A DNA stretch of 32,000 nt, from assembly GCA_035620895.1 (NCBI GenBank), contig DASPFY010000022.1, positions 37,892-69,891 on the forward strand, read 5' to 3'. The notes beneath the pieces are model-generated. The model was not told the DNA's origin. It saw nothing but the letters and a program-made list of their open reading frames with translations, and searched no databases. Both the position numbers and the translations under genes were made by a program. Within the stretch, counting starts at the first letter, position 1. Each line of letters starts with the position of its first letter. Of the stretch, positions 14,847 through 31,126 are shown piece by piece. The stretch is from Nitrososphaeraceae archaeon (GTDB lineage: Archaea > Thermoproteota > Nitrososphaeria > Nitrososphaerales > Nitrososphaeraceae).

Positions 14847-14934
14847 GGGCCCGTAGCTCAGCCAGGTAGAGTACCGGACTTTTATCATTTCGGAAGAAAT
14901 CCGGCTGTCTCGGGTTCGAATCCCGACGGGCCCG
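14847..14934 (+). tRNA. tRNA-Lys (anticodon UUU) with a 14-nt canonical intron (14885..14898)
   Basis: GGGCCCG-TA-GCTC-AGCCAGGTA-GAGT-A-CCGGA-CTTTTA[tcatttcggaagaa]A-TCCGG-CTGTC-TCGGG-TTCGAAT-CCCGA-CGGGCCC-G. The intron sits at the 37/38 position, and the mature length is 74 nt without CCA. Confidence 0.88.
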
Positions 14935-15004
14935 TTAACTACTCGGGTTCATATACTTGTATAGAAGATAGAATAAGCATAGAACGGAGACTGGAGAAAG
15001 AAAG

Positions 15005-15157
15005 ATGACGGTGAGGCTATCTACCACTATTAGCAACATTGAGAAGATTGTTTCGAATGAGCAAAATGTGGAAATAATAAAGAGATTCTTCTTATCGTAT
15101 CATTTCTCATTAGACCAAGTTACTCAAGATTTTAGTAGATCACTTTCCATAGTTTAA
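15005..15157 (+). CDS. Candidate 50-aa ORF translationally coupled to the GNAT gene
   Basis: MTVRLSTTISNIEKIVSNEQNVEIIKRFFLSYHFSLDQVTQDFSRSLSIV*. Its stop lies 2 nt before ATG 15160. Below the track threshold, with no recognised motif. Confidence 0.25.
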   Translation: MTVRLSTTISNIEKIVSNEQNVEIIKRFFLSYHFSLDQVTQDFSRSLSIV

Positions 15158-15159
15158 TA

Positions 15160-16131
15160 ATGGAACCTGTAATTCGCTCCTTAAGAGATGCTGATCTAAA
15201 AGAAGCAGATTCCATTTTTAGACTATCGTTTGGCACATTTCTTGGATTGCCTGACCCTATGAGTTTCTTTGGCGATACAGACTACATCGGTACACGATTT
15301 AGGGCGGATCCTACATTGTCACTGGCTGCAGAGATGAATGGAAATTTTGTAGGATCAAACTTTATCGCAAATTGGGGCAGTGTAGGAATATTTGGGCCAC
15401 TCACAATCCATCCCGATCTTTGGGACAAAGGCATTGCAAAACGTTTGTTAGATAAGACAATGGAGATCTTTAAAGAACTAAAAACTAAACACATTGGACT
15501 CTTCACCTTCTCCAACAGCCCTAAACATATCCACCTTTACCAAAAGTACGACTTTTGGCCTAGGTTTCTTACCGCAGTTATGTCAAAACCTGTAATGTCA
15601 GAGTACGCAGAGAAAAAAAGCCAAGAGAAAATAAGTTGGACCAAATATTCTGACATCCAAAAAGAGCAAACTTCAGAGATTCTTGACAACTGTTCTTCTC
15701 TAACAGATTCGATATATGATGGACTAGATCTCAAGATTGAAATACTATCTGTGGCAGATCAGAAACTTGGAGATACAATTCTCTTGACTGATAACAAAAG
15801 TAACAAGTTGGTAGGTCTAGCCGTCTGTCACTGTGGACCAAAAACCGAGGCTGGAAGCAATACATGCTATGTCAAGTTTGGTTCGGTGACAGCAAGTGGA
15901 GACCGGTTCAAATCTGCTAATTTTGATGACCTTATTGATTACTGTGAACATTTTGCGGCATCCAAGGGACTATCTAAACTTGCTGCTGGAGTTAATCTAG
16001 GTAACTTGGCGGCCTACAGAAAAATGATTTCCAAGGGGTTCAGGACTGAATTCCAGGGCGTCATGATGACTAAAAATAATGATCCAGGGTATCATATTGA
16101 AGACGTCTATGCAATCGATGATTGGAGATAG
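15160..16131 (+). CDS. GNAT-family N-acetyltransferase with an extra C-terminal domain
   Basis: 323 aa. 'LTIHPDLWDKGIAKRLLDKTMEIFKE...HLYQKYDF' is the acetyl-CoA-binding Q/RxxGxG/A-like core of GNATs. The C-terminal ~170 aa are unassigned. Confidence 0.75.
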   Translation: MEPVIRSLRDADLKEADSIFRLSFGTFLGLPDPMSFFGDTDYIGTRFRADPTLSLAAEMNGNFVGSNFIANWGSVGIFGPLTIHPDLWDKGIAKRLLDKTMEIFKELKTKHIGLFTFSNSPKHIHLYQKYDFWPRFLTAVMSKPVMSEYAEKKSQEKISWTKYSDIQKEQTSEILDNCSSLTDSIYDGLDLKIEILSVADQKLGDTILLTDNKSNKLVGLAVCHCGPKTEAGSNTCYVKFGSVTASGDRFKSANFDDLIDYCEHFAASKGLSKLAAGVNLGNLAAYRKMISKGFRTEFQGVMMTKNNDPGYHIEDVYAIDDWR

Positions 16132-16200
16132 ATTAAAGGCAAATTTATCACAGACACAGAATTTCAACGATAATATTCAATCATTGGTCCTCGCGTTCCA

Positions 16201-16233
16201 GACCCGAATCGTTAAGAATTCGAATCCCGACGG
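16201..16233 (+). repeat. att-like remnant D: element-end motif plus a 15-nt copy of the tRNA-Lys 3' end
   Basis: 'gacccgaatcgttaagaattcgaatcccgacgg'. Its last 15 nt (16219..16233) are identical to tRNA-Lys 14915..14929. The whole 33-mer matches 23046..23078 at 28/33. Confidence 0.65.
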
Positions 16234-16478
16234 ATTTGAATGAAAAATAAGTTATTAGAAATGATCTAGAAAATATGTCGTTACTATAAATTATTTCAAA
16301 CATGAAGAAGATGGTTTTTCTAAAATGGTCCCACAATAAGTATAAGACAATTTAGTATCTAATTTTTTGTATATTTTGCAACATTATGTCGAGATATTTC
16401 TTGCCGGAAAGAAAATAAATATTTCTTGAAACGCCCGCATGTATTTAATTAAGAGACATCAGGCTAATGAGTACATTC

Positions 16479-16726
16479 CTATCGATCCCTATCAAACTTT
16501 TCTGGTCCTTCAACAGTATATCCTTATATGAGAGCACCTTTCGGCTTGACATAATCTGGCAAACCGAGAACCCAAGATACCTTTTGGTCCTCAAACGCCC
16601 TACAAAGTATGCACCAATTCCCTCGTTTACTGCAGTTAGTAACATGATCATAGAAGCAAACGTTCCATCTACGATACTATAGAATTCTTTGCCTCGAATA
16701 TATGCCCCAAGTCGAAGGAGATCCAC
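16479..16726 (-). pseudogene. Nitroreductase-family pseudogene (C-terminal ~85 codons; 5'-truncated, frameshifted, internal stop)
   Basis: Frame 1 reads '...FYSIVDGTFASMIMLLTAVNEGIGAYFVGR'. After a +1 shift it continues 'FEDQKVSWVLGLPDYVKPKGALI*GYTVEGPEKFDRDR*', the canonical nitroreductase C-terminus, interrupted by a TAA. The N-terminal half is missing, and the upstream space is occupied by the 101-aa gene ending at 16731. Confidence 0.7.
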
Positions 16727-16730
16727 TATA

Positions 16731-17036
16731 TCACATTCTCATGGTTTCCTTGCTAATCTGTACCCGTATGATTCTTTTTCCCTGATTGTCATCTACAGCG
16801 TCTAATGTCGTTTGCCAGTTGTTGTTAAATGCGTCTCGTAAAATGTCAAGGATTCCATAATAGACTAAATCATTGACTCCAAAAGTAGCTTGGCCGAATC
16901 TGAATCCGAATCTTGTGCCAGGAAAAGTATCAAGGCTAATGATAAAATTAACATCAAAGAAATCGTTAGATGGTCTACGATCCTGTACTAGAATCGAGGT
17001 TATTTTTCCGGTAAATTGTAGCATTTCTATTCCCAT
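16731..17036 (-). CDS. Hypothetical protein (101 aa), last gene of the M64-propeller operon
   Basis: Same strand as the 260-aa gene and 48 nt downstream of it. No recognised motif. Confidence 0.5.
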   Translation of the reverse strand: MGIEMLQFTGKITSILVQDRRPSNDFFDVNFIISLDTFPGTRFGFRFGQATFGVNDLVYYGILDILRDAFNNNWQTTLDAVDDNQGKRIIRVQISKETMRM

Positions 17037-17084
17037 ATTGTCATTATCACCTCCATTTCTGTCAACATTCGATCACATTCACGC

Positions 17085-17867
17085 TCACGGCGTATAATGC
17101 CTAAAAAGTTCATAAATTTCTGTTTGTGATCGCTGTGAGAGACCGGTTATATCTATTCCTTTTAACCGGGACACTTCATGTAGTTTATTTTTATACTGGT
17201 GAGTAAAAGATTTCTCCCCTATTATTTTATTTATGTGGCTCTTAACTTCGTATAACCCAATTTCTACTTTTGGAAGTAGAGAGATAGACAAATCTTTAGC
17301 AGGGATATCAACATCAAATTCATAACTAGGAAGCTCCACAATGAAATGGCCTTCCTGACCGGGTACTCCATAAGGATTGGGAAAAGATCTGTTAACACCA
17401 ACATCCATTATTGACCCTGACGCGATGCGCCTTGTCGATAAAGTTACTTCATAGGCGTATTCACCATCGATTCTATCTTCTATTATGAGTGGTCCGTCGA
17501 GCTTGTGTACATCAATCAATGTCATTTTTCCATCTTCTACATGTAAAGTTAAGCGAAGATACGCTCCACCTTTCTGTACCGAAGACTTCTGATTTATCTC
17601 CTTAAATTCTGCTGGTCTAGGATACTCGGCAGTAGTGCCCTTACGTCCATTTGTATTGTCTCTGCCTGCTTCTCCATCTCTGTTCTCTGGAATAGGACCC
17701 ATTAACTTTTTGTCGCCTATCGCATGACCAAACCTGTACTTGCCAGTTGGCATGCTTACTATTTTTCGTTCAACAGGTACAAAATAATTTGAGGCTTGCA
17801 TAAAAGAACGAATACTTGGATATTCAATAGCAGGAGATACACTACTTTCTTGTTTTAATTCGGGCAT
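17085..17867 (-). CDS. Hypothetical protein (260 aa), coupled to the M64-propeller gene
   Basis: ATG lies 1 nt after the upstream TGA (TGAAATG). The N-terminal third is G/R/N-rich and looks disordered; the C-terminal two thirds are beta-rich. No signal peptide or known motif. Confidence 0.6.
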   Translation of the reverse strand: MPELKQESSVSPAIEYPSIRSFMQASNYFVPVERKIVSMPTGKYRFGHAIGDKKLMGPIPENRDGEAGRDNTNGRKGTTAEYPRPAEFKEINQKSSVQKGGAYLRLTLHVEDGKMTLIDVHKLDGPLIIEDRIDGEYAYEVTLSTRRIASGSIMDVGVNRSFPNPYGVPGQEGHFIVELPSYEFDVDIPAKDLSISLLPKVEIGLYEVKSHINKIIGEKSFTHQYKNKLHEVSRLKGIDITGLSQRSQTEIYELFRHYTP

Positions 17868-17868
17868 T

Positions 17869-19935
17869 TCACCAATTCCTACCGTACTTATAGTTATGAA
17901 TCCATTTATAATAAATTTTAGATAGTATCAGATCACTGGAGGGGTCAGTGCGAATCATGCCCAACCAGTCTTGCTTATGAACAATCAGGTCCCGTTTACC
18001 TGGTAGGCCCTCATAGTCACAGGGCTCAAACATATCATCAAATCCTAAAATCCATTCTCCAATTCTATCCTCCTTCAAAAAAGGAAGTAAAGCATTCCCA
18101 CTTGAGACCATACATCCAAAATATTTATGTGACCAATCTACAAAATTAAAAGCGAAAAGATCGTATTTTCCATCACCATTAACGTCGGAAACATAATAAT
18201 TATCGTTCTTACGCATCTGCCATCGAGAAATATTACCATCATAGCGCTTAGTCATGGAAAGATCACTACCGGAAGATCTCATCATACCAAGATAAGCGAT
18301 GGCCCAGCCCCTTCCGTTGAAAACGAAGAGATCATCTTTACCATCTCCATCAAAGTCTCCTACATAATGTCGATCCTGGGGTTTCATTTGCCAGCTAGGC
18401 ATGTTAGCATCGAACCTCCTTGCCACTGAAAGACTAGTTCCATTAGACCTCACCATACCCAAATAAGGAATGGACCAATCAGTTCCGTTGAAAACGAAGA
18501 GATCATCTTTACCATCTCCATCAAAGTCTCCTACATAATGTCGATCCTGGGGTTTCATTCGCCAGCCAGGTATGTTCCCATCATACCGTTGTACAATGGA
18601 GAGGCTAGAGCCATTTGATTTAATCATAGCAAGATACGGTATGGCCCATTGGTTTCCATTGAATATGAAGAGATCTTTTTTAGCATCACCATCAAAGTCT
18701 CCTACATAGAACTTGTCGGACCTCTGAAATGGCCAACCCGGCATACCATCATCATATCGAACTACTAACCTTAGACCATTGCTGCCGTCATCCATTAATA
18801 GCCCTAATATCTCAATTGCCCAGTCAAGGTTGTTATAAATCAGTACCTCATCCTTACCATCTCCATTGAAATCTCCTACATAGAACTGGTCGTTGGGTTG
18901 AAAATACCACGAACCAGGCACAAATAGCACGGCACTAAAAATCAAATCAAGCTTAGCGCCATCGGACCTATAGATAAGTATAGAGTTACCGTTATGAACT
19001 AACAGATCATCCTTACCATCACCGTTAAAGTCACCTGTGTAACATTTGAGAAACGAATGGCCAGTGTAGGCGTGCATTCTGGTTTTTAGCTGAGTATAGC
19101 ATATAGGACAGTAGGGGGGCCAATTTTCACGCATACGACAATTTATAACAGGACGAAAGACACCCCGGTCATAAGTACTACCTCCTTCAAACAATCCGAC
19201 GTCCTGACTGTCGCTCCAGCCAGGAGGTCTCGTACCTTGGTTATAGCCAGCACAGCTTCCGAGACCAGTAGGTATGGGAGTTGTATTATTAATGAACTTA
19301 TTCCATTTTATGGTAGCTAGGTTAGTGTTAACTGTTGCATTAGAGCGTGAAGGTTCTCCAAAAGTCCAAGTTCTTGATCGACAGTATTCATCCGCAAGAT
19401 CACCGGCTGCATGACCAAACTCATGCGCCATAACATTCCAAGGGCCCCCTAGAGTAACTACCTGGTGTCCATCCCATGCTTTTCCCCCCCAACCTGTCTC
19501 GTTTAGAATAATAACAACTAAATGTCGATTAGGCACCCACGTGTTCAAAACATCCCGGACTCGGCTAAGCGTGTCCGCACTATCATCAATCCAAAAGTGT
19601 ATCCAAGAGCCATTATATATATACCTCAGCGCCGTGTCCTTCATGGTGGTACTTACGATTGTGTCATCTGACGGATCATTAGGAGTGCCGTGTTCGTCAT
19701 ACACCCGTTTACTTACACCAGACTCATTTGAAATGAGGTTAACCCTATAGATATTGAAAGCCTGCATATCTTCATAAAAGTAATCATGCCCGAAAACTCC
19801 ATCCAATAGCAGTTCCTTAACTTTATTGTTGTATGTTGTTTGATCAGCCTCTGCGAAACCGTCTCCAAGGACGGCAATGTTTCGCTTTGTGCCAGGAGGT
19901 CCTGAGTTAAGGATCTGAGTTACGCTGTCAACCAC
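17869..19935 (-). CDS. Peptidase M64 (IgA-peptidase-like zinc metalloprotease) fused to a 7-bladed FG-GAP/VCBS beta-propeller
   Basis: 688 aa. 'KRNIAVLGDGF...' together with 'VMAHEFGHAAGDLADEY' (HExxH plus downstream E) fits the M64 family as I know it. Seven repeats follow, of type 'YVGDF(D/N)GDGKDDLFVFNG'. The start is GTG and overlaps the upstream stop by 1 nt. There is no N-terminal hydrophobic segment. Confidence 0.85.
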   Translation of the reverse strand: MVDSVTQILNSGPPGTKRNIAVLGDGFAEADQTTYNNKVKELLLDGVFGHDYFYEDMQAFNIYRVNLISNESGVSKRVYDEHGTPNDPSDDTIVSTTMKDTALRYIYNGSWIHFWIDDSADTLSRVRDVLNTWVPNRHLVVIILNETGWGGKAWDGHQVVTLGGPWNVMAHEFGHAAGDLADEYCRSRTWTFGEPSRSNATVNTNLATIKWNKFINNTTPIPTGLGSCAGYNQGTRPPGWSDSQDVGLFEGGSTYDRGVFRPVINCRMRENWPPYCPICYTQLKTRMHAYTGHSFLKCYTGDFNGDGKDDLLVHNGNSILIYRSDGAKLDLIFSAVLFVPGSWYFQPNDQFYVGDFNGDGKDEVLIYNNLDWAIEILGLLMDDGSNGLRLVVRYDDGMPGWPFQRSDKFYVGDFDGDAKKDLFIFNGNQWAIPYLAMIKSNGSSLSIVQRYDGNIPGWRMKPQDRHYVGDFDGDGKDDLFVFNGTDWSIPYLGMVRSNGTSLSVARRFDANMPSWQMKPQDRHYVGDFDGDGKDDLFVFNGRGWAIAYLGMMRSSGSDLSMTKRYDGNISRWQMRKNDNYYVSDVNGDGKYDLFAFNFVDWSHKYFGCMVSSGNALLPFLKEDRIGEWILGFDDMFEPCDYEGLPGKRDLIVHKQDWLGMIRTDPSSDLILSKIYYKWIHNYKYGRNW

Positions 19936-20075
19936 TACTTCTTACCAACCAATTGATCTTCTATAAATTGAATCGAACCATCATCTTTTTCTTTCAGTTT
20001 TGGAAACAGAACGTCGCTTATCCCTTTTCCTACTGGCTGATCATAATCCTCTGGATTTGCATTTACTTCTGACAT
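19935..20075 (-). CDS. Small acidic protein (46 aa from ATG 20075), first gene of the operon
   Basis: MSEVNANPEDYDQPVGKGISDVLFPKLKEKDDGSIQFIEDQLVGKK*. Its stop overlaps the GTG of the M64 gene (TAGTG). The track's 65-aa version starts at TTG 20132. Confidence 0.4.
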   Translation of the reverse strand: MSEVNANPEDYDQPVGKGISDVLFPKLKEKDDGSIQFIEDQLVGKK

Positions 20076-20534
20076 AATGATAGTCCTCTTTTCATGAAAA
20101 AGAATTTTATGGGCTGTATCTCGGACAAACAATTAATTTTGTTTACATCTTTCTTGATCTCCCGTTTTATTCTTTTATTTTTACCATTCTTAAATTGATT
20201 TTTCACTACATTTTTTTAAATATTACAGTTTATATGCATTTAGTACTGATCAATAACTGATCATACAATAAGCAATGTTTAATATCCACTTCCTTTCGAA
20301 CGAAGGAAATGAAAATCGTTACTTCATGCAGAAAAGGAGTTCTCTAAGTATGGTAATGCGAGTAGATAATATCAAGTGATCGAATATTCACAATTTGCGG
20401 TTGATAAGTAACCACCGATTATTCTTCTATTACAGTTCCTACCGGATGAAAATTTCCGACTGTTGGGGGGACCTATTTCCTGGACTGTGGCAACGGTACT
20501 GAGTTTCGACTAAATATCAGCCATATCTCCTCAT

Positions 20535-20563
20535 TTGGATCCGAATTGTTAACAATGCGTATC
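20535..20563 (+). repeat. att-like repeat C1 (left copy)
   Basis: 'ttggatccgaattgttaacaat' (20535..20556) is identical to 23043..23064, and 5 of the next 7 nt also match. It contains the near-palindrome AATTGTTAACAAT. Confidence 0.7.
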
Positions 20564-20618
20564 TCTCTAGATAGCATCCCAATTGTTAACTATCCAATTG
20601 ACTACGATCTTATTTGTA

Positions 20619-20662
20619 AACACTGTAGTGGTAACGCTAAAACACTGTAGTGGTAACGCTAA
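20619..20662. repeat. Perfect 22-bp tandem duplication (aacactgtagtggtaacgctaa x2)
   Basis: 20619..20640 equals 20641..20662 exactly. It lies in the 720-bp divergent intergenic region. Confidence 0.9.
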
Positions 20663-20853
20663 ACAAATTTAAAATCCTTCAATACCTTTGTATATAATAG
20701 TCACAATTGAAACTGCTTTTTTATTTACTTATTTACTCTACAGTACCAATATCTTACAATATAAGAAAATAAGTATAAACGTGATACAGTTATGATGTTT
20801 GAGACTGTATTGTATAAGGATACATTATTATTTAATGATCACTATCACGTTCT

Positions 20854-22950
20854 ATGCTATCTATACATAAAAGGAAAGAAATTGTTCAACAGAATATGGA
20901 TCCCAAAATCAACCCTCAATACAAACAAAATTATCCGTTTAGAAAGAAGAAATCTGATTTTCATTTCAATGCTAAGTTAAGAGATTATTTTATGCTCTTT
21001 AGTTTTTTTTGCATTTTCTTACCAACCGGGATGCTTCTGGGATTAGAAACCAATTATGTCTTTGGTCAAATAGAGAACAATTTGATAAACGAGACAGATA
21101 AAAATAATAGTTCTATTTCATTTTCCAATTTCACTTCACCCTCACATTCAGACAGAATACCCTTTGTTAGTAACAAATCAAACGAGAACAGTAGTGCACC
21201 TCAAGCTAATCAATCAAGCATTGAATTGAGTTCAGATTCAAGTTCCCAGTCAGGTGGTCGATCGAGCTCTAAAGCCAACGGTGATTTTAATGGTGACGGA
21301 TTTGATGATCTTGCTATTGGAGTAGCTTTAGAAGATGTGGATATAGCAGGCGGAAGTCTACTCAATGCGGGTGCGGTCAATGTCATATATGGCTCTTCAA
21401 ATGGACTGAATGCTACATCGCCTATACCAAATCAGTTCTGGACGCAGGATAATGTATCTGGTATTTCAGAATTTCGTGATAGATTCGGTGAATCACTAAG
21501 CTCTGGGGACTTTAACCGTGATGGATTTGATGATCTTGCTATTGGAGTAACTTTAGAAGATGTACAAACTGTTCACGGAGGACCGACTATAGAGGATGCG
21601 GGTGCGGTCAATGTCATATATGGCTCTTCAAATGGACTGAATGCTACATCGCCTATACCAAATCAGTTCTGGACGCAGAATAAAGTGGGTGGTTTTCCTG
21701 GAACGAGCGAATTTTTCGGTACGTCTCTTGCCTCAGGTGACTTTAATGGTGATGCCCTTGACGATCTTGCTATTGGAGTACCGGATGAAGACGTGGTTCG
21801 AGCTGGATTAACTAGAGATAATGCAGGAGCAATTAATGTCATATACGGTTCTTCAAATGGTCTATCAGCCACATCGACTAGACCAAGTCAGTTCTGGACA
21901 CAGGATACCGCAGATGTAGACGATTATTCAGATGAAGATGATAAGTTCGGTGAATTTCTCACGTCAGGTGACTTTAATCACGATGCTATTGATGATCTTG
22001 CTATTGGAGTACCGGATGAAGATTTTGCTCCGGGCCCTAATGCAGGCAGCAATCTAACTAATGACGGTATCATGCAAGTGATCTACGGTTCTGCTGAGGG
22101 TCTGTCAGCTACTTTAGTGAGAGAAGATCAAAGGTGGAGTCAGAGCTTCACAGATATAGAAGATTTTGCCGAACAATATGATGGCTTCGGTTCAGCTCTC
22201 GCCACTGGTGATTTTAATGGTGATGCTATAGATGATCTTGCCATTGGAGTATCAGGCGAAAGTGTAAACACGAGCGGAGGAACTATAGTTAGGGCCGGTG
22301 CAGTCAATGTGATACATGGCTCTTCAATGGGCCTATCTGCTACATCACCCATACCAAATCAGTTTTGGACACAAGCTACCGCAGGTGTAGATGAACTTCC
22401 AGATGAAGGTGATTTGTTCGGCTTATCTCTTGCATCTGGTGACTTCAATAATGATAGTATGGACGATCTTGTTATTGGAGTACCGGATGAAAGCGTGAAT
22501 ACGGGAAGCCATATAATAGTTCATAGTTATGGCGCAGTCAATGTCATATATGGCTCATCGGCCGGCTTGTCAACTGACGCATTGTCACCAGGTGATGGTA
22601 GAGCTGCTCAGCTGTGGACGCAGAATTCTACAAATGTAGATGATGTTCCAGAGGATGAGGATTTTTTCGGTAGATACCTCAAGACCGGTGATTTTAATGG
22701 TGATGCTGTTGATGATCTTGTTATTGGAGCACATGGGGAAGGAAATTATGTATCAGGAGTACTTGTAAATGATGCAGGTGCAATCAATGTGATATATGGC
22801 TCAGTCGGCATCGCCATCGGCTCAGGCGGCCTGAGTGCTACGGTTCCACTTGGTGGTATCGGACGAGATGATCAGTTTTGGACACAGGATACAGAAGATG
22901 TAGAAGATCATTTAGAATTTAATGACTATTTCGGCAGGCCAGTCGCGTAA
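20854..22950 (+). CDS. Secreted or membrane-anchored integrin-alpha-like FG-GAP repeat protein (7 repeats)
   Basis: 698 aa. Hydrophobic segment 'MLFSFFCIFLPTGMLLGL' (ATG 20992 would make it an N-terminal signal peptide). An S/N-rich linker precedes 7 units of 'FG..L.SGDFNGD..DDLAIGVP.E......AGAVNVIYGS..GL'. The last FG at the extreme C-terminus closes the propeller. Confidence 0.85.
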   Translation: MLSIHKRKEIVQQNMDPKINPQYKQNYPFRKKKSDFHFNAKLRDYFMLFSFFCIFLPTGMLLGLETNYVFGQIENNLINETDKNNSSISFSNFTSPSHSDRIPFVSNKSNENSSAPQANQSSIELSSDSSSQSGGRSSSKANGDFNGDGFDDLAIGVALEDVDIAGGSLLNAGAVNVIYGSSNGLNATSPIPNQFWTQDNVSGISEFRDRFGESLSSGDFNRDGFDDLAIGVTLEDVQTVHGGPTIEDAGAVNVIYGSSNGLNATSPIPNQFWTQNKVGGFPGTSEFFGTSLASGDFNGDALDDLAIGVPDEDVVRAGLTRDNAGAINVIYGSSNGLSATSTRPSQFWTQDTADVDDYSDEDDKFGEFLTSGDFNHDAIDDLAIGVPDEDFAPGPNAGSNLTNDGIMQVIYGSAEGLSATLVREDQRWSQSFTDIEDFAEQYDGFGSALATGDFNGDAIDDLAIGVSGESVNTSGGTIVRAGAVNVIHGSSMGLSATSPIPNQFWTQATAGVDELPDEGDLFGLSLASGDFNNDSMDDLVIGVPDESVNTGSHIIVHSYGAVNVIYGSSAGLSTDALSPGDGRAAQLWTQNSTNVDDVPEDEDFFGRYLKTGDFNGDAVDDLVIGAHGEGNYVSGVLVNDAGAINVIYGSVGIAIGSGGLSATVPLGGIGRDDQFWTQDTEDVEDHLEFNDYFGRPVA

Positions 22951-23042: not shown

Positions 23043-23082
23043 TTGGATCCGAATTGTTAACAATCCGCATCCCGACGGGCCC
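23043..23082 (+). repeat. att-like repeat C2 (right copy) fused to a 14-nt copy of the tRNA-Lys 3' end
   Basis: 'ttggatccgaattgttaacaatccgcatcccgacgggccc'. 23069..23082 is identical to tRNA-Lys 14920..14933, and 23046..23078 matches remnant D at 28/33. Confidence 0.7.
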
Positions 23083-23152
23083 TCGCTAAACTTGTCCCTT
23101 TAAGCTACAAAGTATAAAAAGCAATTAAAACTATCTAATACTCACTGTTAGA

Positions 23153-23866: not shown

Positions 23867-23892
23867 CTTACTTAGGTAAAGAGATTTATGGC

Positions 23893-24102
23893 ATGAAAAG
23901 AGAGAAACTAATCACCGCTGTGATAATATTTTGCTTTTTCGGTGGTTTGGTAGGAGGTCCTGTGGCTAGCCTATTTGACTATAATGGATCCCCTGAAGAA
24001 CGATTTAGACTTTTGATTATTCCAGAATTTATTGGATTTATCAGTGCAGGTTTTCTGGTTTATTACGGAAAATCTGTTAAAAAAAGGACAGGTAGCTCCT
24101 GA
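23893..24102 (+). CDS. Small two-TM membrane protein (69 aa)
   Basis: Two hydrophobic helices ('LITAVIIFCFFGGLVGGPVASL', 'LLIIPEFIGFISAGFLVYY') and a basic C-terminus. Confidence 0.45.
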   Translation: MKREKLITAVIIFCFFGGLVGGPVASLFDYNGSPEERFRLLIIPEFIGFISAGFLVYYGKSVKKRTGSS

Positions 24103-24372
24103 AAAGGTGCTTTATTGAATTGGATATGAAATATTGTATAAAGAATGCATCCGAACTTATAATTGCCGTTTCATGTTATTTTCATATACAACTTATTGCC
24201 ACTCCTCCAGAATATGCTTGTTCATGCCCTCGGACATATACCAGCATTGCCATTCCATTGACCATAACAAAATTTGGAGTTGTTACATTAGTACAAATAA
24301 TTTGTTGATACCAATTATGTGGAAAGATTAAACTAAATAAAACGATTAATCTGTTATGAGCACAAGATAGAA

Positions 24373-26370
24373 ATGAAAAAATACCACGAAGGAAAGATTA
24401 GAGTAGATTTTTCTCTTCGCAGAGAAGTACTATTTGTTGTCATAGGTGCAGTTGTCGGTGCGGTATTAATGGTATTTCCACGAATGGTTTTTGAAGCTGG
24501 AATGGGACTACCTTACTACATCACCTGGATAGCATTTGGTCACGTGGTAGGCGTCTACTCATCCTTCTCAGTACTTGCAGGGATTACAATCCACATGATA
24601 ACAGCCATTTGTATTGGAGTCGTTATTGGAATCTTCTTATACAAATCGGGGATTTTAAATATTAGTAAGTTATCAAACGGACTAATTTACGGACTATTCG
24701 CGGGTATGGTCGTATTCATTCTATTTTTCATACCCGTATCTCAATTTGTATTAGCCCCCGAAATTGCTCGAACATTAACCGAAATGATTCCATCGATGAC
24801 AGAAATTGAAGCAGCCAAACAGCTTGTAATGAGCCTTCCACTAATAATTGGTGGTGCTATCGTAACTCATTTGGTCTTTGGTGTGACGGTTGGATTGATC
24901 TCTTCAATTCTGTCAATTAAGTTTGGAGCAAGATACAGGTGCCCTGAATGCGATATATCATTAGCCAGGATTGATTCTCATCAAAAACACCGAGAGATGG
25001 TCCATGGGGCGCAACCCATCACACTAGAACGAATATTGATCCTGGGAGGAGGATTCGCAGGAGTCCAAGTTCTACGAGCACTTCAAAAAGAGTTTCAGGA
25101 TGATGTAAGCGTAGACATTACATTAGTAAGTAGAGACAACTTTTTCTTATTTACACCTATGCTACCAGAGGTATCATCAGGGATGATAGAAACGAGGAAT
25201 ATACTAACACCTGTGAGAACTTTTTGTAATAGAGCGCGGTTTTACGAAGCAGAGGTAGAATCTATAGATCTAAAAAACAGACAAGTTGTTATTACACATT
25301 TCATAGGGAGGCAGATTCATCCGGTTGATTCTCGATATCATGAATTAAAGTATGATTATCTCGTATTATCTCTCGGCAGTGAGACAAACTTTTTTGGAAT
25401 GAGTGATGTAGCAGATTATGCGTTTACTATAAAGAATATCGGTGACGCAGTGTCGATAAGAAATCATGTAATCAATATGTTAGAACAAGCTGATGTGGAA
25501 CACCAAGATTTTGATCTAAAGAAGAGTTTGATGACCTTTGTTGTTGTTGGGGGAGGTTTTTCCGGTGTTGAAACTGTCGGAGAGTTAAATGACTTTGTGC
25601 GTGAATCTATAAAATATTTCTATCATAATATTGAAATGTCTGATATCCGTATTGTTCTTGTTAATTCTAGCAGAAGGATCCTGCCTGAAGTAACAGAGGA
25701 TTTATCAGAATTTGCTTTACAAAGAATTAGCAAAAATGGAGTGGAAGTTCTTTTGAACACTCGTCTTACAGGAGTTGATGCTAACAGCGTTAGACTGAGT
25801 GATGGTATGAAAATATCCACATATACAGTAATTTGGGCTGGAGGAAATAGACCTAATCCATTGCTATCATGTCTGCAATGTGAGCACGATAAAAATGGAA
25901 GAATATTGACTGATAACTATCTCGAAGTAAAAGGCTATAACGATCATGTCTTTGCGTTAGGTGATTGTGCCTGTATAATTGATCCCAATACAAGTAAAGC
26001 ATGTCCTCCTACCGCACAGCATGCATTAAGGCAGGCAAAGGTAGTTGCAAATAATATTTCAGCTTTGATAAAGCACAAGGGTAAAAAAAGTAAGAAAATA
26101 AACAAGAAAAGGTTTGATTATAAGACTAAGGGCATGATGGCATTGATTGGTAAGAAGAATGGGGTTGGTGTTTTATTCGGATATAAAATACATGGATTTC
26201 TAGCGTGGGCTATATGGCGTTTCTATTATTTATCTACTCTTCCTACTATGCAGAAGAAGGTGAGAGTAATGGTTGACTGGTTTATTGATTTGTTATTTAA
26301 ACGGGATGTAACAAGGCTTAAAACACATACTATGAGTAATGGCTTCAATTTACCCACAGAAAAGAAATAA
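24373..26370 (+). CDS. ndh: Type II NADH dehydrogenase (NDH-2) with an N-terminal polytopic membrane domain and a C2H2 zinc finger
   Basis: 665 aa. Residues ~20-190 form 5-6 hydrophobic helices with conserved-looking His residues (FGHVVG, TIHMITA, VTHLVFG). 'YRCPECDISLARIDSHQKHREMVH' fits C-x2-C-x12-H-x4-H. The NDH-2 body follows, with 'ILILGGGFAGVQ' and 'VVVGGGFSGVETVGEL' dinucleotide folds, 'ALGDCA', and the C-terminal amphipathic anchor 'WAIWRFYYLSTLP...VDWFIDLLFKRDV'. Confidence 0.85.
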   Translation: MKKYHEGKIRVDFSLRREVLFVVIGAVVGAVLMVFPRMVFEAGMGLPYYITWIAFGHVVGVYSSFSVLAGITIHMITAICIGVVIGIFLYKSGILNISKLSNGLIYGLFAGMVVFILFFIPVSQFVLAPEIARTLTEMIPSMTEIEAAKQLVMSLPLIIGGAIVTHLVFGVTVGLISSILSIKFGARYRCPECDISLARIDSHQKHREMVHGAQPITLERILILGGGFAGVQVLRALQKEFQDDVSVDITLVSRDNFFLFTPMLPEVSSGMIETRNILTPVRTFCNRARFYEAEVESIDLKNRQVVITHFIGRQIHPVDSRYHELKYDYLVLSLGSETNFFGMSDVADYAFTIKNIGDAVSIRNHVINMLEQADVEHQDFDLKKSLMTFVVVGGGFSGVETVGELNDFVRESIKYFYHNIEMSDIRIVLVNSSRRILPEVTEDLSEFALQRISKNGVEVLLNTRLTGVDANSVRLSDGMKISTYTVIWAGGNRPNPLLSCLQCEHDKNGRILTDNYLEVKGYNDHVFALGDCACIIDPNTSKACPPTAQHALRQAKVVANNISALIKHKGKKSKKINKKRFDYKTKGMMALIGKKNGVGVLFGYKIHGFLAWAIWRFYYLSTLPTMQKKVRVMVDWFIDLLFKRDVTRLKTHTMSNGFNLPTEKK

Positions 26371-26783
26371 AGAAATGGGTTGTCATAGACATATTACGTG
26401 AGTTCTAAAAATATTAAGCGAGTAAAACAAGTCAAAATACCTATATTAGTTTTAGAAATTCTGACTAGGTTCCGATTGAATATTCAGTCGTATCCAGAAT
26501 GTCGAATAGCTATCAATCCAATGTTATTACAATTATCAATTTTTAGTTCGTTATAAATTACATCGGATATCTGGTTGAACGTTAATTCAAATTTTCATCG
26601 AGCGCATTCTCTGATATAAAATCAAATCCTGCCAAGATCTTATAAGAATGCAAACTAATTTAGTAAAGTATGGGAGCACTACCTTTTGTAAATAAAGAAG
26701 TGGCACCAGCTTTTGTAAAAAAAGAAAAATATGAATTTCTAATCTGACTTGTGTACATCTTCGAATGTAACTATGAGAAGCAG

Positions 26784-26843
26784 AAGAAAAAGCTAAATAC
26801 AAAGTAATAAAACCTTAGTACATGCAGGGTTTGAATCCCGAAG
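26784..26843 (+). repeat. Direct repeat A1 (60 nt), ending in a degenerate tRNA T-arm/acceptor-like motif
   Basis: Matches 31017..31076 at 51/60 with no indels. Its last 15 nt, 'tttgaatcccgaaga' (26830..26844), run 1 nt past the annotated repeat end and match the tRNA-Lys sequence 'ttcgaatcccgacgg' at 12/15. Confidence 0.7.
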
Positions 26844-26942
26844 AACCCGTGCGAATTCATTTAAACAAAAATATTTTATGAAAATATTCCCTAAGAAAGA
26901 AAAACTTTAAAGCTTAGTATCTAATTATTTCGGTAAGAATCC

Positions 26943-26981
26943 ATTTTTAGAACCGATAGCGTCACGGGTACCGACGGCTCA
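26943..26981 (+). repeat. Direct repeat B1
   Basis: 'atttttagaaccgatagcgtcacgggtaccgacggctca' versus 30325..30364: 19 nt identical, then 3 mismatches, 11 nt identical, and a 1-nt indel. Confidence 0.7.
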
Positions 26982-27031
26982 TCAACTTCTTAATAGTTTT
27001 GTTATCCATAACAAGTATCGTAGACTCAAAA

Positions 27032-27178
27032 ATGGTAAATATTGGAAACAGCAGGGAAGATAGAACGCACTCATGCGACTCTTGCAATTCAGGCAGTCAA
27101 GTAGAGTGGTGTGAAAGCTGTAACACATTTGTGTCCAAGAATTGCGACAACGAAGTTCATTCCGTCAGTCTGCCTTAA
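27032..27178 (+). CDS. Candidate 48-aa Cys-rich (zinc-binding?) mini-protein
   Basis: MVNIGNSREDRTHSCDSCNSGSQVEWCESCNTFVSKNCDNEVHSVSLP*. It has CxxC...CxxC...C...H. Below the track threshold. Confidence 0.35.
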   Translation: MVNIGNSREDRTHSCDSCNSGSQVEWCESCNTFVSKNCDNEVHSVSLP

Positions 27179-27213
27179 CTTTAGGATTTTCACGGGCCGA
27201 AGCAAGAGGCTTA

Positions 27214-27462
27214 TTACAGGGCATAGGATAATTGTCTTTTAATTTCTTCCTTGCTGTTCGTTTCTGCTGTACTTTCATCGAGTGCTTTAATCATATCATC
27301 TAAAAACGCTTTTAGTGCCTCTCTATGTTCTTTATTATTATAATATTTATTGATTATTACGGTCCTAGTTTCTTCATCTTCTATCCATCTAAATATTTTA
27401 TTTAATGCATCTAACTTCAATTCTTCTTGTTTGTCAATGTTATTATTATTATCAGAGGACAT
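27214..27462 (-). CDS. Hypothetical helical protein (82 aa)
   Basis: Isolated ORF, K/E-rich, with no recognised motif. Confidence 0.45.
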   Translation of the reverse strand: MSSDNNNNIDKQEELKLDALNKIFRWIEDEETRTVIINKYYNNKEHREALKAFLDDMIKALDESTAETNSKEEIKRQLSYAL

Positions 27463-27720
27463 TTTACATTATTTGATCTTATTCTTCCCTGTTAATAACT
27501 CAATATCCGCGCGACGACCGAAAGCCTAAATTAATTAATATTGTGTCCGTGAATTGAATAATTATCTATTCTTAATGGGACCTTCTGTTACTATAACTTC
27601 TCTTCTAGTAACAAATTATTTATGTAGTAACGATAATAATTGCTAAAAATACTACTCAATATCTAGCGAATTGTGATTACTTTCTTTAAGTCTTATATTC
27701 AATGAAATAAATGCTATTGT

Positions 27721-28176
27721 ATGTCGGAAATGTCCAAAAGACAAATTAGAGGATTCCTAAATAAAGGCACCTTCACAGGAAAGCTAGCTACAGTTAGGAA
27801 GGATGGAAGCTCTCATGTTGTTCCTATCTGGTTTGTGTTAGAATATCGAAATAATGAAGTTAACTTAGGAAATATCTATTTTACAACTTTTATTGGATCG
27901 GTTAAAGCAGAAAATATTCAACGAGATAATAGGATAAGCATTTGTATAGATGACCAGACTCCACCCTTTACCTTCGTAACTATTCATGGCACGGCAAAGC
28001 TTTATCCATATAAGCAAAAAGAGGTTTTGAAATGGGCGACCAGAATTGCCAAACGATACGTGGGTAATAAAGATTCAAAGGCATATGGTGAAAGGAATAG
28101 TGGAGAGGGAGCGGTACTTGTGCAAATAAAACCTACTAAAATAATTGCAGAAAAAGATATAGCTGCTTGGGAATAA
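27721..28176 (+). CDS. Pyridoxamine 5'-phosphate oxidase-family (FMN/F420-binding split-barrel) protein
   Basis: 151 aa. 'GTFTGKLATVRKDGSSHVVPIWFVL...' and 'ISICIDDQTPPFTFVTIHGTA' are typical of the PPOX-class split beta-barrel family. Confidence 0.8.
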   Translation: MSEMSKRQIRGFLNKGTFTGKLATVRKDGSSHVVPIWFVLEYRNNEVNLGNIYFTTFIGSVKAENIQRDNRISICIDDQTPPFTFVTIHGTAKLYPYKQKEVLKWATRIAKRYVGNKDSKAYGERNSGEGAVLVQIKPTKIIAEKDIAAWE

Positions 28177-28246
28177 GAATACCGGCCTCAATGACTTGGA
28201 TAATTCCCTTATCAACAAGATTTTAAGTTGCATTTGACCAAATCAA

Positions 28247-28972
28247 TTGACAGTTGGAGTGAGTAACATCTACACGGCATTGGTAACAGGAAGTGGGCGC
28301 GGTATAGGGAGGGAAACAGCTATCCTGTTATCCAAAAAGGGGTTCAATTTGGTTATATGTTCAAGAAGTCAAAATGAGATAGATTCAGTAGTGAAAGAAA
28401 TCAAATCATTTGGAAATGATAAGATCATAGGAAGAGAATGTGACGTGAGTGTCTCTTCCCAAGTGAATGCCCTTGTGAATGACGCATTGGATATTTACGG
28501 ACGAATTGATGTATTGATAAACAATGCTGGAATTTCATATGTCCGAAAACTAATTGAAACTACAGAAGAGCAATGGGATAGCACACTAGAGATCAACCTG
28601 AAAGGCAGTTTCCTTTTCTGCAAAGCAATTGTTCCACACATGATGGAACACAACCATGGAGTTATCATTAACGTAAGTTCAGGTGCAGGCAAATTTGGGT
28701 TTGAAGATATATCAGCATATTGTGCGAGTAAATTCGGCATGATCGGGTTAACAGAAAGTTTAGCTCGTGAAGTTGCTAATTACAATATTAGGGCAATGAC
28801 AATTTGTCCTGGAGAAGTGGCAACAAAAATGCAGAAAGATATCGATGCACAATACTATGAACTGAACAAACACAAGATGCTGCATCCCCGTAGGGTTGCA
28901 GAAAAAATTGCAGACATGATATTTAGCGATAAAGAATACTCAAATGGAGTTAGTGTGGATCTTCCGAGCTGA
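28247..28972 (+). CDS. Short-chain dehydrogenase/reductase (classical SDR)
   Basis: 'ALVTGSGRGIGRETA' (TGxxxGxG), 'NNAGI', and 'SSGAG...YCASKFG' (S-Y-K triad). The track start is TTG 28247; GTG 28259 is an alternative. Confidence 0.88.
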   Translation: MTVGVSNIYTALVTGSGRGIGRETAILLSKKGFNLVICSRSQNEIDSVVKEIKSFGNDKIIGRECDVSVSSQVNALVNDALDIYGRIDVLINNAGISYVRKLIETTEEQWDSTLEINLKGSFLFCKAIVPHMMEHNHGVIINVSSGAGKFGFEDISAYCASKFGMIGLTESLAREVANYNIRAMTICPGEVATKMQKDIDAQYYELNKHKMLHPRRVAEKIADMIFSDKEYSNGVSVDLPS

Positions 28973-29251
28973 AGATCCAATCACAAAACTTGATTATTTT
29001 CCCCAAGAATGGACGAAGTAGTGCTGAAGGAATGTGCTAATAACAAATGATTAGTAAGTCTCCTGTATGGTAAGGGGCTTTTTTCGGCCTCACCTTATTA
29101 TTTGTCTGTGACTACGTTTTCATCATGATGAATACACGTGAAATCTCTACACCAATAACAAAAACCGCAATTTGGGCATAATGACTTTGAGCGCGTTGGA
29201 TGAAAGTCGGTGTAACAATTAAAGCAATTCATTACAATTCCCAATTGAAAA

Positions 29252-29590
29252 CTAGTTTGCTGGTTTATGAGAAGTTTTCAGAGATACGCAAGTATCATAT
29301 GCTTGCTTAATCAATCGCTTTGAATTGTCTGCCTGCTCTTCAGTTTCTAATATGCATGAGACCCATCCTGCCTGTGGAGCATACTGGTGCGAAATAGCCA
29401 TACGTATCCGCAAGGCCTCTTCTTGTTGAGGTTTTGATAGCCTGATATCTATGTGTCGTGGTCCATGAAAATGGGCAAAATTTCTTAAACCATAGAAATA
29501 AGCTTCTTCACTCATAGGATCATGTTTTCGCTCGACATTTAGTAACGATCTTATGAAACTACTAATTTGTTCTTTCAAGCTGAGACCCAT
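29252..29590 (-). CDS. Hypothetical protein, DUF5519-like ('luciferase-domain' small protein family)
   Basis: 112 aa. 'YFYGLRNFAHFHGPRHIDIRLSKPQQEEAL...HQYAPQAGWVSCIL' resembles that family as I recall it. Unverified. Confidence 0.5.
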   Translation of the reverse strand: MGLSLKEQISSFIRSLLNVERKHDPMSEEAYFYGLRNFAHFHGPRHIDIRLSKPQQEEALRIRMAISHQYAPQAGWVSCILETEEQADNSKRLIKQAYDTCVSLKTSHKPAN

Positions 29591-29621
29591 TGCTCATAAA
29601 TGTATACTCTTTATTGTTTAT

Positions 29622-29978
29622 CTACCTACCTATTTGCACAAATTTATTGAAGTAAAATAATGGAGAGTCCTTAAAGATTACCTTTTTTCTGTTACTACAG
29701 ACCTGATATAAAATCCAATCTAGAATTCTTAATTCAGTATCTAATGGATCGGCTTCAAAAATAGAATCTGTTTTATTTATCTTATCTATAATTTCATTCA
29801 TTCCGATTTGTATGATTTCACAAATAAAAATATCCGGATTCTTCATATTCTTTAAGACCCAGTTTATCAATTCAATCCTTTTTGTAAGATCTCTTTTGTA
29901 AGTGGAATCATCATTTTCTCTGCTAAGCCATCGTTTAGATTCTTCAATTTCTACTAGTAAAATCTGTTCGATAGACAT
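29622..29978 (-). CDS. Hypothetical protein (118 aa)
   Basis: ATG ORF lying 31 nt upstream of the previous gene on the same strand. No motif recognised. Confidence 0.45.
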   Translation of the reverse strand: MSIEQILLVEIEESKRWLSRENDDSTYKRDLTKRIELINWVLKNMKNPDIFICEIIQIGMNEIIDKINKTDSIFEADPLDTELRILDWILYQVCSNRKKVIFKDSPLFYFNKFVQIGR

Positions 29979-30095
29979 AGACTAAATTAATAATATTAAG
30001 ATTTAAGATAGCAAGCGACTGTTAGGGTGGGAGACCGGTCTACTCTATCTTGAAATACTCTAAAGGTATAAGCATGATTAAGTCAATATTCCATT

Positions 30096-30323
30096 ATGTC
30101 TGAAGAAAGAATAGGAGATAAGTTTCTTCGGAAACTCTATGAAAAGACGGTAAATAATGGAATAGAAAATATTGACAGAGAGGAGATTGGAAAAGAAATC
30201 GGAATAATAGATGTACAAATGGATAATCTGATTGACGAATTGACTTCTGAGGGTTATATAAAGAAACTAGGCCGGACAAAAATTTACTTAACCGATGATG
30301 GAAGAAAAAGAGTCGAAATATAA
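30096..30323 (+). CDS. Small winged-helix-like DNA-binding protein (75 aa)
   Basis: 'REEIGKEIGIIDVQMDNLIDELTSEGYIKKLGRTKIYLTDDGRKRVE' has the helix-turn-helix plus wing layout of MarR/ArsR-like wHTH proteins. It is divergent from the 29622..29978 gene. Confidence 0.5.
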   Translation: MSEERIGDKFLRKLYEKTVNNGIENIDREEIGKEIGIIDVQMDNLIDELTSEGYIKKLGRTKIYLTDDGRKRVEI

Positions 30324-30324
30324 T

Positions 30325-30364
30325 ATTTTTAGAACCGATAGCGGCGTGGGTACCGACGAGCTCA
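30325..30364 (+). repeat. Direct repeat B2
   Basis: Partner of 26943..26981 (see B1). It begins 2 nt after the wHTH gene's stop. Confidence 0.7.
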
Positions 30365-30393
30365 GATTTTTATCTGATGTTACAATACTATTG

Positions 30394-30948
30394 TCAATCG
30401 GCTTTCGAAGAATTTTTCAATTTCAGGTCGTCAGTAATCTCATTTGATAAAGGAGTTTTTTTGCTCAAGTCGGTGAGTACGATTTTTATCGACACGCTTT
30501 GCAAAGACTTGTCATGAAGGGTAGTTCTTAGCACCTGTTCGCCGCCATCACTTTGAAGAGTAAATCCACTCCCAATTGAAGTAGTTTTAATGAGTGTTCG
30601 GTTGGGAGCATAGACCTCCATTACTGCGTTTATTAGTTGATTTTGTATTTTTTCATCTTCAAGAGCATATTCTACGTTAACTTTAACTTGGTTCGCATCA
30701 GTATTTGTAAGAGGAATAAAGCTCGAATTTACAACCGAAATATCTATCGACCCACTTTTTTGTGAGAAAGATTCTGTGACGCTAGTGAGCATAATAAATA
30801 TCGAAAAAGCCAATGTTAGGATAAGCCCACACTGATTGGATTTCTCGGATTTTATATCCACTGAATAGTAGGTTTCTCCAAAGGCTATAACCATTAAATA
30901 GTAATCTTCTAGACATTCATTTGGAAAATTTTTCGCACTTTCAAGCAT
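30394..30948 (-). CDS. Hypothetical exported or membrane-anchored protein
   Basis: 184 aa. Internal hydrophobic segment 'CGLILTLAFSIFIMLTSV' followed by a beta-rich, Ig-like-looking region. The start codon is uncertain. Confidence 0.5.
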   Translation of the reverse strand: MLESAKNFPNECLEDYYLMVIAFGETYYSVDIKSEKSNQCGLILTLAFSIFIMLTSVTESFSQKSGSIDISVVNSSFIPLTNTDANQVKVNVEYALEDEKIQNQLINAVMEVYAPNRTLIKTTSIGSGFTLQSDGGEQVLRTTLHDKSLQSVSIKIVLTDLSKKTPLSNEITDDLKLKNSSKAD

Positions 30949-31016
30949 TGATTAGTTACTTTAGGACTTACAATAATGAACAAGAAACAATCACTAGAGG
31001 ACAAGAACCAAACTAA

Positions 31017-31076
31017 AAGAAAAAGCTAAATACAACGTAATAGAACGCCAGTACATGCAAGGTTCCAATCCCGACG
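31017..31076 (+). repeat. Direct repeat A2
   Basis: Partner of 26784..26843 (51/60). Its 3' part, 'ttccaatcccgacgt' (31063..31077), runs 1 nt past the annotated repeat end and matches the tRNA-Lys 3' end at 13/15. Confidence 0.7.
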
Positions 31077-31126
31077 TCTGTGAATCAAATTTACTCCTAA
31101 TCCTTCCGGATTCGCCTTCTTCGTGG

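Follow-up and report, generated by a model that had tools for sequence, protein, structure and literature searches.

What has happened at the 3' end of the tRNA-Lys(UUU) gene of soil Nitrososphaeraceae, given that in one member of the family the last bases of this gene recur on the same strand in the DNA behind it? The question is raised by a stretch of 32,000 nucleotides (nt) from a Nitrososphaeraceae archaeon (contig DASPFY010000022.1 of assembly GCA_035620895.1, positions 37,892 to 69,891), hereafter the window, which has a GC content of 37%. Judging from its phosphatase gene, whose nearest relatives at ~80% amino-acid identity come from soil Nitrososphaeraceae metagenome-assembled genomes (MAGs), the host is a soil ammonia-oxidising archaeon. 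An earlier note on the window had described four copies of the tRNA-Lys 3' end and explained them as a stack of at least four decayed modules from two element families. Our results identify tRNA-Lys(UUU) as the primary attachment site. We assign a probability of about 0.8 to the reading that its 3' end serves as a serial integration site for several element families, which afterwards lose their integrase side by deletion.

The four copies hold up in position, identity and strand. The copy at 16219-16233 is identical at 15/15 positions (blastn-short E 0.002 within the window) and the one at 23069-23082 at 14/14 (E 0.009), or at 17/19 when extended to 23064. The other two are degenerate, with 12/15 matches at 26830-26844 (14/15 in the register 26827-26841) and 13/15 at 31063-31077 (15/16 in the register 31061-31076). 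In 100 shuffles, zero 19-mer matches with three or fewer mismatches arose, and by their E values the two exact copies are unlikely to be due to chance. Reading of the sequence also bore out that the first two copies, taken with their upstream motif, have 28 of 33 bases in common, and that the last two share a different motif. The latter extends over ~60 nt and scores 55.2 and 51.7 bits (E 5e-15 and 6e-14) against a profile built on 76 independent metagenome copies. It is this shared upstream sequence, together with the match to a profile of independent copies, that validates the two degenerate copies. The T-loop part GGTTCGAATCC is generic T-arm sequence that is also found in the opposite-strand tRNA-Asp, so that it is CCCGACGG(GCCC), along with the comparative results given below, that makes the copies specific for tRNA-Lys.

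In total, the window contains at least seven junction sites of three motif families, each terminating in the common core CCGACG, which in the tRNA gene (14923-14928) lies at the junction of T-stem and acceptor stem. Type A (~33 nt) reads ttGGATCCGAATTGTTAACAAT.CG.ATCCCGACGG, type B (~60 nt) aaaaGCTAAATACCAAGTAGTAGAACCCTAGTACATGCAGGGTTCnAATCCCGA and type C (~85 nt) GAAAACTTTAAAGCTTA...AGAATCC.TTTTAGAACCGATAGCGTCGTGGGTACCGACGG. All seven are direct repeats of the tRNA 3' end on the + strand and lie downstream of tRNA-Lys (Table 1); no sites were found in the first 14.8 kb of the window or in the upstream flanks of 12 relatives. The sites delimit at least eight modules of accessory genes, so that the stack of integrations proposed earlier stands with higher counts of sites, modules and families. 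The array continues beyond 32 kb: an exact-protein look-up lengthened the window by ~1.9 kb, and two further C sites lie at ~32.2 and ~33.1 kb (locus L013; short contigs identical to the window). The module between B site 26783-26848 and C site 26897-26981 is "empty", as these sites are almost back-to-back. Some sites are in poor condition, since the window B copies score 52-55 bits compared with up to 70 elsewhere, and one A site lacks its core. Base composition does not distinguish island from core (GC 0.32-0.44 and 0.32-0.41, respectively). Independent short-read assemblies of the same strain (L013-L018) end at 30328, inside a C-type site, and at 31301, which is consistent with contig ends induced by repeats or heterogeneity.

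Same-strand partial tRNAs could also be relics of duplicated tRNA genes or of a segmental duplication of the locus. However, recurrence is limited to the last 14-25 nt and never includes the 5' half of the gene, the sequences upstream of the copies form three conserved families that are not tRNA-derived, and the intervening modules are mutually unrelated. We consider such a duplication extremely improbable.

Alignment with relatives, suggested in the earlier note as a check, shows where the conserved locus ends; its outcome, like that of the integrase search described below, favours the integration model. Across 12 loci of Nitrososphaeraceae relatives, the window aligns at the nucleotide level as far as 14934/14935, where the tRNA has its last base, and no further; beyond this point, each relative has different DNA. 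The tRNA-Lys gene itself is intact at one boundary of the array and conserved in sequence, and its divergent pairing with tRNA-Asp recurs in L097, L132 and L147. L120 and L097, which are otherwise 99.76% identical, differ only in the tRNA-proximal 0.6-0.8 kb, where the former has a stub of one integrase family (C) and the latter an arm belonging to another (D). Seven MAG contigs terminate within a few hundred bases of the tRNA, as strain heterogeneity at this position would produce. Junction sites are present in the relatives as well: L004 has an A site 12 nt past the tRNA and another at 13.2 kb, and B sites are found 9 kb (L010) and 2.6 kb (L011) past the tRNA.

Modules are 85-97% identical between genomes whose core DNA is 74-80% identical, and the arms reach ~85-90% across the same genomes. 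The 1.16 kb GNAT acetyltransferase unit of the window is also found in L074 (97%), L031 (91%, directly behind a C-type core) and L004 (85.5%; core DNA 74%), with different neighbours each time. Segment 29248-29627 is 92% identical to L010 DNA that abuts tRNA-Lys (core DNA 75-80%), module 30365-31079 is 96.8% identical to L060 until the core, and the FG-GAP gene at 20854-22950 has a homologue in L080 that is also inside an array. This 698-amino-acid FG-GAP gene has internal repeats at the DNA level (21280-22800), which show up as several self-similar alignments of 65-72% when it is compared with the L080 homologue.

The ends of such shared segments are concentrated at the cores. For segments that contigs share over 300 nt or more, 378 right ends were informative, and 146 of these lie no further than 15 nt from a core, compared with 3 at random. 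Left ends are looser, with 96/324 within 100 nt of a core (19 at random) and 19/324 within 15 nt, and these ragged ends are on the side where integrases sit. In addition, identical flanks are found behind different arms. The DNA from 31071 on is preceded by a B arm in the window, but by a C arm in L134 (CCGACG joined to TCTGTG), and one flank lies behind an A site in L004 and behind a B site in L065. Junctions resembling attP (arm, CGGGCCCG, integrase-side arm) occur inside the arrays of L044, L052, L057, L080 and L090. These do not prove excision, because tandem insertion predicts identical junctions: one would arise each time a further element inserts at the tRNA in front of an earlier arrival.

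These breakpoints also bear on the idea that the motifs are promoters, small RNAs, tRNA-like 3' structures or other regulatory or RNA elements, whose likeness to the T-arm would be convergent and unconnected with recombination. Present in both B and C arms are indeed strings (AAAAAGCTAAATA and GAAAACTTTAAAG) that resemble a transcription factor B recognition element (BRE) and TATA box, and the B consensus folds better than its shuffles (z -3.5). On the other hand, shuffles fold as well as A, C and the window B copies do, in the copies the 5' half of the T-stem is non-complementary, and no Rfam family matched. Also against this idea, the flanks on either side are unrelated from copy to copy, homology between genomes breaks exactly at CCGACG, flanking genes have no orientation bias, and arrays are headed by tRNA-Lys and integrases. 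A regulatory or RNA origin is thus very improbable.

According to the earlier note, the window has no recognisable integrase. This is correct for intact genes, but 70 nt past the tRNA there is a 29-codon N-terminal remnant of a XerD-like (family D) integrase at 15005-15091 (tblastn with the L132 protein 69% identity, E 5e-8; family hidden Markov model (HMM) E 0.0024), and by our own count 24/29 of its residues are identical to protein P0123. Searching the six-frame translation of the window with two integrase-family HMMs returned nothing except this stub. A weak integrase match at 31646-31732 (E 0.028) received no support from the family HMM scan and was rejected. The arm that precedes the remnant follows tRNA-Lys in L097, L132 and L147 as well, and on the basis of remnant and arm we regard the first module of the window as a truncated integrase-bearing element. 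The same arm repeats CTCGGGTTC, the 5' half of the tRNA T-arm, at 14942-14950, 8 nt past the tRNA end. This repeat is conserved in L097, L132, L147 and L052 and may be a second integrase-binding half-site.

Intact integrases are found directly after tRNA-Lys in several relatives. In L001, L019 and L020, a family C open reading frame (ORF) of ~410 amino acids starts ~10 nt past the tRNA, accompanied by a primase-polymerase (prim-pol) in L001 and by MCM in L019, while L120 retains a family C stub next to the tRNA. Family D (XerD-like, with an RHS...RY motif) follows tRNA-Lys in L132 and L147, and is intact in the latter. Integrase stubs are found at the left ends of modules in the window, L080, L125 and L132. 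The split gene of SSV-type integrases is not seen, as the integrase ORFs begin 8-70 nt past the end of the tRNA, and those of L001, L019 and L020 are full length. The integrase-bearing element at tRNA-Lys in L020 also contains a 2,881-amino-acid ABC-toxin-like gene with TcA/TcB and neuraminidase-like domains (13546-17440).

Sequence searches of the integrases against Pfam, PHROGs and PDB gave no significant match. Family C has ~1,900 homologues, many labelled "integrase" at source, and the catalytic columns R, K, HxxR and Y are invariant. In fold searches, the predicted structure of family C matches XerA (E 3e-7), Cre, Tn1549 Int, XerH and lambda Int, with VchIntIA lower (E 1e-3). Fold search and conserved catalytic columns are the sole means of identification here, and they support a tyrosine integrase. 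Family D is a putative integrase based on its RHS...RY motif, the source name "XerD" and a SAM-like N-terminus; its structure model was unusable (predicted local distance difference test score 43). A family C subfamily (63-64% identical to the L001-type reference) is located ~8 nt past tRNA-Arg(GCG), beside metH, in another Nitrososphaeraceae genus (L141-L146, ~9880-11215). These six tRNA-Arg(GCG) loci have no A, B or C sites within 10 kb, and therefore the motifs are tied to tRNA-Lys and not to the whole integrase family.

An exact-pattern scan for motif B recovered at least 120 soil-metagenome contigs, to which profile searches were then applied. Counts from these contigs are not independent, since they were picked by their B motif and many are redundant; with this limit, one strand has 247 sites (162 B, 57 C and 28 A) and the other 1. 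Sites reach a density of 8 per 9 kb with a median spacing of 1.26 kb (n=133), and 25 spacings are below 300 bp, i.e., back-to-back sites. Every array with a visible start is headed by tRNA-Lys (window, L010, L011, L097, L120, L125 and L132). In 675 kb of array DNA, tRNA-Lys and its tRNA-Asp neighbour are the sole tRNAs, positioned at the array head in 4/4 contigs that have them, and the core flanks of all loci contain zero A, B or C sites. In the DNA covered here, the motifs are thus abundant but arranged in co-oriented arrays, unlike a dispersed repeat unrelated to tRNA-Lys. The 108 modules of at least 300 bp carry 0-8 ORFs each, 44 of them a single ORF, and the genes are divided between the strands as 115 and 108. 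We assigned 133 Pfam families among 148 representative cargo proteins (E 1e-5), including SDRs, luciferase-like monooxygenases, PNPOx, NHL/Kelch/FG-GAP propellers, tyrosinases, response regulators and hydrolases. Among the 25 Pfam families listed for cargo, none is mobile-element machinery. The window modules conform to this pattern.

We propose that tyrosine recombinases integrate several element families of soil Nitrososphaeraceae at the 3' end of tRNA-Lys. The attP of an incoming circle would consist of a conserved left arm belonging to one of the three types, CCGACG as the core, and a right arm with CGGGCCCG at its start, which restores the tRNA and leads to the integrase gene. Recombination at the core, with a crossover predicted within AATCCCGACG, would place the integrase side beside the tRNA and send left arm and core to the far end. 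When the site is used again, older elements would be displaced outward, resulting in a co-oriented chain of left arm, core and next module, and these older elements would lose their integrase and replication side by deletion so that cargo and left arm remain. Serial integration with integrase-side deletion explains the co-orientation, the tRNA at the array heads, the stubs at the left ends of modules, the precise right and ragged left boundaries, and the degraded sites of the window. On this reading, the window shows the decayed state of such a chain, with at least seven junctions, eight modules and one integrase stub. The B and C arms each open with their BRE/TATA-like box directed across the core (26783-26800 and 26900-26916 in the window; consensus of L021-L140). 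In a circular element the boxes would face the integrase gene, which suggests a putative integrase promoter assembled solely after excision.

Several results weigh against serial integration followed by decay. Neither an empty site nor a shared downstream flank was found in any relative, leaving the far boundary undefined. A search for the far end of the intact elements in L001, L019 and L020 revealed no site within 10 kb, no complete element with an integrase plus its own left arm was recovered, and no pairing of arm types with integrase families was obtained. In the 17 kb of array in the window, we found no intact integrase, replication gene or virion gene. Scans of IMG/VR revealed no free viral or plasmid form: motifs A and B had 0 matches, family C one irrelevant match (24%) and family D none. 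The selection of metagenome contigs by motif B, described above, belongs here as well. Moreover, the median module of 1.3 kb is far below the size of an autonomous element, and most internal junctions are followed by sequence that is unable to restore the tRNA; modules of this kind would either have lost the restoring arm or never have entered at the tRNA itself. The decay assumed in the earlier note is established in part, and the gene-sized modules imply that it may not be the whole story. Gene-sized modules, arms more conserved than core DNA and non-restoring junctions leave room for cassettes mobilised in trans.

Trans-mobilisation of cassettes that insert at internal junctions, whether integron-like or by accretion, is possible, though we consider it less likely than not. 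In its strict integron-like form, which we regard as rather unlikely, integrase-less cassettes with one site each (A, B or C arm plus core) would be excised as circles and reinserted at tRNA-Lys or at any junction by trans-acting integrases. By analogy with integron cassettes or streptococcal cis-mobilizable elements, these integrases would be supplied by whichever element currently adjoins the tRNA. Insertion site by site within the array predicts the prevalence of junctions lacking tRNA-restoring sequence, and the single-ORF modules, short spacings, conserved arms and extremely diverse cargo fit it too, as does the GNAT cassette, which occupies varied positions in four arrays and is once bounded by cores on both sides. 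Against it, left boundaries are imprecise, as noted above. Deletional decay predicts integrase stubs where they are seen, at left module ends; gene orientation is random, the window B copies are degraded relative to their consensus, and no circular form was seen. A broader version, which we put forward as doubtful but worth stating, is a tRNA-Lys-anchored gene-capture platform in soil Nitrososphaeraceae, analogous and not homologous to the integron, in which XerA-like integrases beside the tRNA would insert, excise and reshuffle single-gene cassettes in trans, each carrying one of the three sites. Arrays tens of kb long might then hold much of the flexible gene pool of the lineage, a consequence we likewise offer only tentatively.

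Tandem islands at the Dehalococcoides ssrA gene and the Islander tDNA islands reportedly contain a number of partial copies on the same strand, separated by accessory cargo. These islands have in common with our arrays that site-specific integration occurs serially at a small-RNA gene, at its 3' end, but typically measure several kb to tens of kb and each retain an integrase (PMC3146451; PMC4383910). The modules described here are mostly 0.3-4 kb and integrase-less, and several arm families share one core. Integration at tRNA genes, short attachment (att) sites and arrays formed by site reuse are established in Thaumarchaeota and other prokaryotes (PMC6563490; for other prokaryotes, PMC4383910 and PMC3146451). 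In Thaumarchaeota, 57% of integrated elements target tRNA genes, att sites are short (median 17 bp), and reuse of a site by tyrosine-recombinase elements gives rise to arrays (PMC6563490). The cryptic elements and proviruses with pNOB8-type tyrosine integrases in that survey (Krupovic et al., 2019, PMC6563490) resemble ours in the tRNA 3' end target, the short att core and the intact integrase gene beside att, as well as in the MCM and prim-pol of L019 and L001. However, the survey covers 20 genomes with single or double insertions and does not mention tRNA-Lys or Nitrosocosmicus, whereas we find chains of at least eight mostly integrase-less modules, and three conserved arm families of 33-85 nt in at least 120 metagenome contigs.

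Integrons and clusters of attC sites lacking integron-integrases (CALINs), including archaeal ones (PMC9668308), are also co-oriented arrays of short sites (here 247 vs 1 by strand) that separate diverse accessory genes, with a tyrosine recombinase beside the primary site and many arrays free of integrase. The site design differs, since attC sites are variable, form hairpins and contain GTTRRRY, while ours are conserved in sequence, have the core CCGACG and lack that design; an attC-like folded hairpin was ruled out for A and C by the folding result above. Integron cassettes are promoterless with a single ORF in uniform orientation, in contrast to the mixed strands and up to 8 ORFs per module seen here, and our primary site is a tRNA gene. 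By predicted fold, the family C integrases appear nearer to XerA/Cre than to IntI. The arrays thus fall short of the definition of an integron in how their sites are built, how their ORFs are oriented and what serves as primary site, and the archaeal integron paper mentions neither Nitroso- nor Thaumarchaea (PMC9668308). Streptococcal cis-mobilizable elements, with the att accretion of integrative and conjugative elements, share att-flanked integrase-less modules, tandem stacking and a core in common with an integrase-bearing element, as reviewed in PMC5704250 and PMC7563491. That system is bacterial, linked to conjugation and usually comprises one or two elements; for any mobilisation here the evidence is indirect, namely the occurrence of one cassette in different arrays. 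Our literature search found no description of the tRNA-Lys array, the three arm families or their prevalence. Tandem tRNA islands are known; the cassette-like, widespread form is undescribed.

Upstream of the array, core archaeal genes extend to 14.6 kb and include PolB, TatC, thymidylate kinase, an AmoC paralogue, a CDC48-N protein and an inositol-monophosphatase-like protein, the phosphatase referred to above. The AmoC-family ORF (8265-8837, + strand, 190 amino acids; Pfam E 1e-13 over the C-terminal two thirds of the family model) is solitary and located ~6 kb upstream of the tRNAs, and L019 is arranged alike. tRNA-Asp(GUC), the divergent neighbour of tRNA-Lys, is the last conserved feature ahead of the array, and was overlooked both by default ARAGORN and by Rfam at the gathering threshold. 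Due to its 14-nt intron, tRNA-Lys is assigned a wrong type by ARAGORN, and UUU comes from the hand parse. Elsewhere, arrays carry larger gene sets. The first module after tRNA-Lys in L120 (1343-5528; 2083-6265 in L097) encodes a DUF763 protein and a full LigD fusion with phosphoesterase, ligase and prim-pol domains. In L027 (509-9131) and L011 (13709-20795), a complete molybdenum-cofactor biosynthesis cluster with a sulfite-oxidase-like gene lies between two B sites as the second module after tRNA-Lys; such housekeeping-looking genes were unexpected within an array.

Table 1. Coordinates of tRNA genes, junction sites and modules in the window.
Feature	Position	Strand	Evidence
tRNA-Asp(GUC), non-canonical ~44-nt intron in D-arm/anticodon-stem region	14593-14706	-	T-arm 15/15 match; ARAGORN intron mode
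tRNA-Lys(UUU), 14-nt intron after position 37	14846-14935	+	ARAGORN; Rfam 58.9 bits (gathering score 29); hand parse
Family D element-side arm (TTAACTACTCGGGTTCATATAC), then integrase remnant 15005-15091	14936-15091	+	tblastn; family HMM
GNAT acetyltransferase cassette (gene 15160-16131), ends at A site 16200-16233	15075-16233	+	Pfam
Type A site	16200-16233	+	profile and sequence comparison
Module: small ORFs, 260-amino-acid ORF, M64 peptidase/FG-GAP protein (17869-19935); ends at degenerate-core A site	16234-20563	-	library scans; profile
Type A site, degenerate core	20536-20563	+	profile and comparison with related DNA
Module: FG-GAP repeat protein (20854-22950), ends at A site 23043-23082	20564-23082	+	Pfam; profile
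Type A site, core plus GGGCCC	23043-23082	+	profile and sequence comparison
Module: DnaJ-domain protein (23153-23866), NDH-2-like oxidoreductase (24373-26370), ends at B site	23083-26848	+	Pfam; profile
Type B site	26783-26848	+	profile
Type C site, promoter-like GAAAAACTTTAAAG and ...GAACCGATAGCGTCACGGGTACCGACGG	26897-26981	+	blastn to >20 loci; alignment; 55.9 bits
Module: 82-amino-acid ORF, PNPOx (27721-28176), SDR (28247-28972), luciferase-domain protein (29252-29590), 118- and 75-amino-acid ORFs; up to the partial C site	26982-30364		Pfam; profile
Type C site, partial	30326-30364	+	alignment; profile
Single-gene module: 184-amino-acid ORF (30394-30948), ends at B site	30365-31079	-	profile
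Type B site	31015-31079	+	profile
Start of next module: small zinc-ribbon ORFs	31080-32000		L134, L013 comparison

Ammonia-oxidising archaea drive nitrification in soil, and how they acquire accessory genes is little understood. This locus represents one concrete route, in which small modules build up in chains behind one tRNA gene. The modules carry oxidoreductases, secreted repeat proteins and regulators, and in relatives a molybdenum-cofactor cluster, and are exchanged between genera more freely than core DNA. Soil relatives commonly have such chains at tRNA-Lys, which appear to be a major means of gene gain. The three junction motifs are sequence tags with which the flexible gene pool could be harvested from any soil metagenome, and they could explain why MAG contigs break at tRNA-Lys. 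Arm-core sequences and the tRNA 3' end could further provide defined substrates for two very divergent families of archaeal tyrosine recombinases. If it is true that modules move in trans, an integron-like system would have been independently invented in Archaea.

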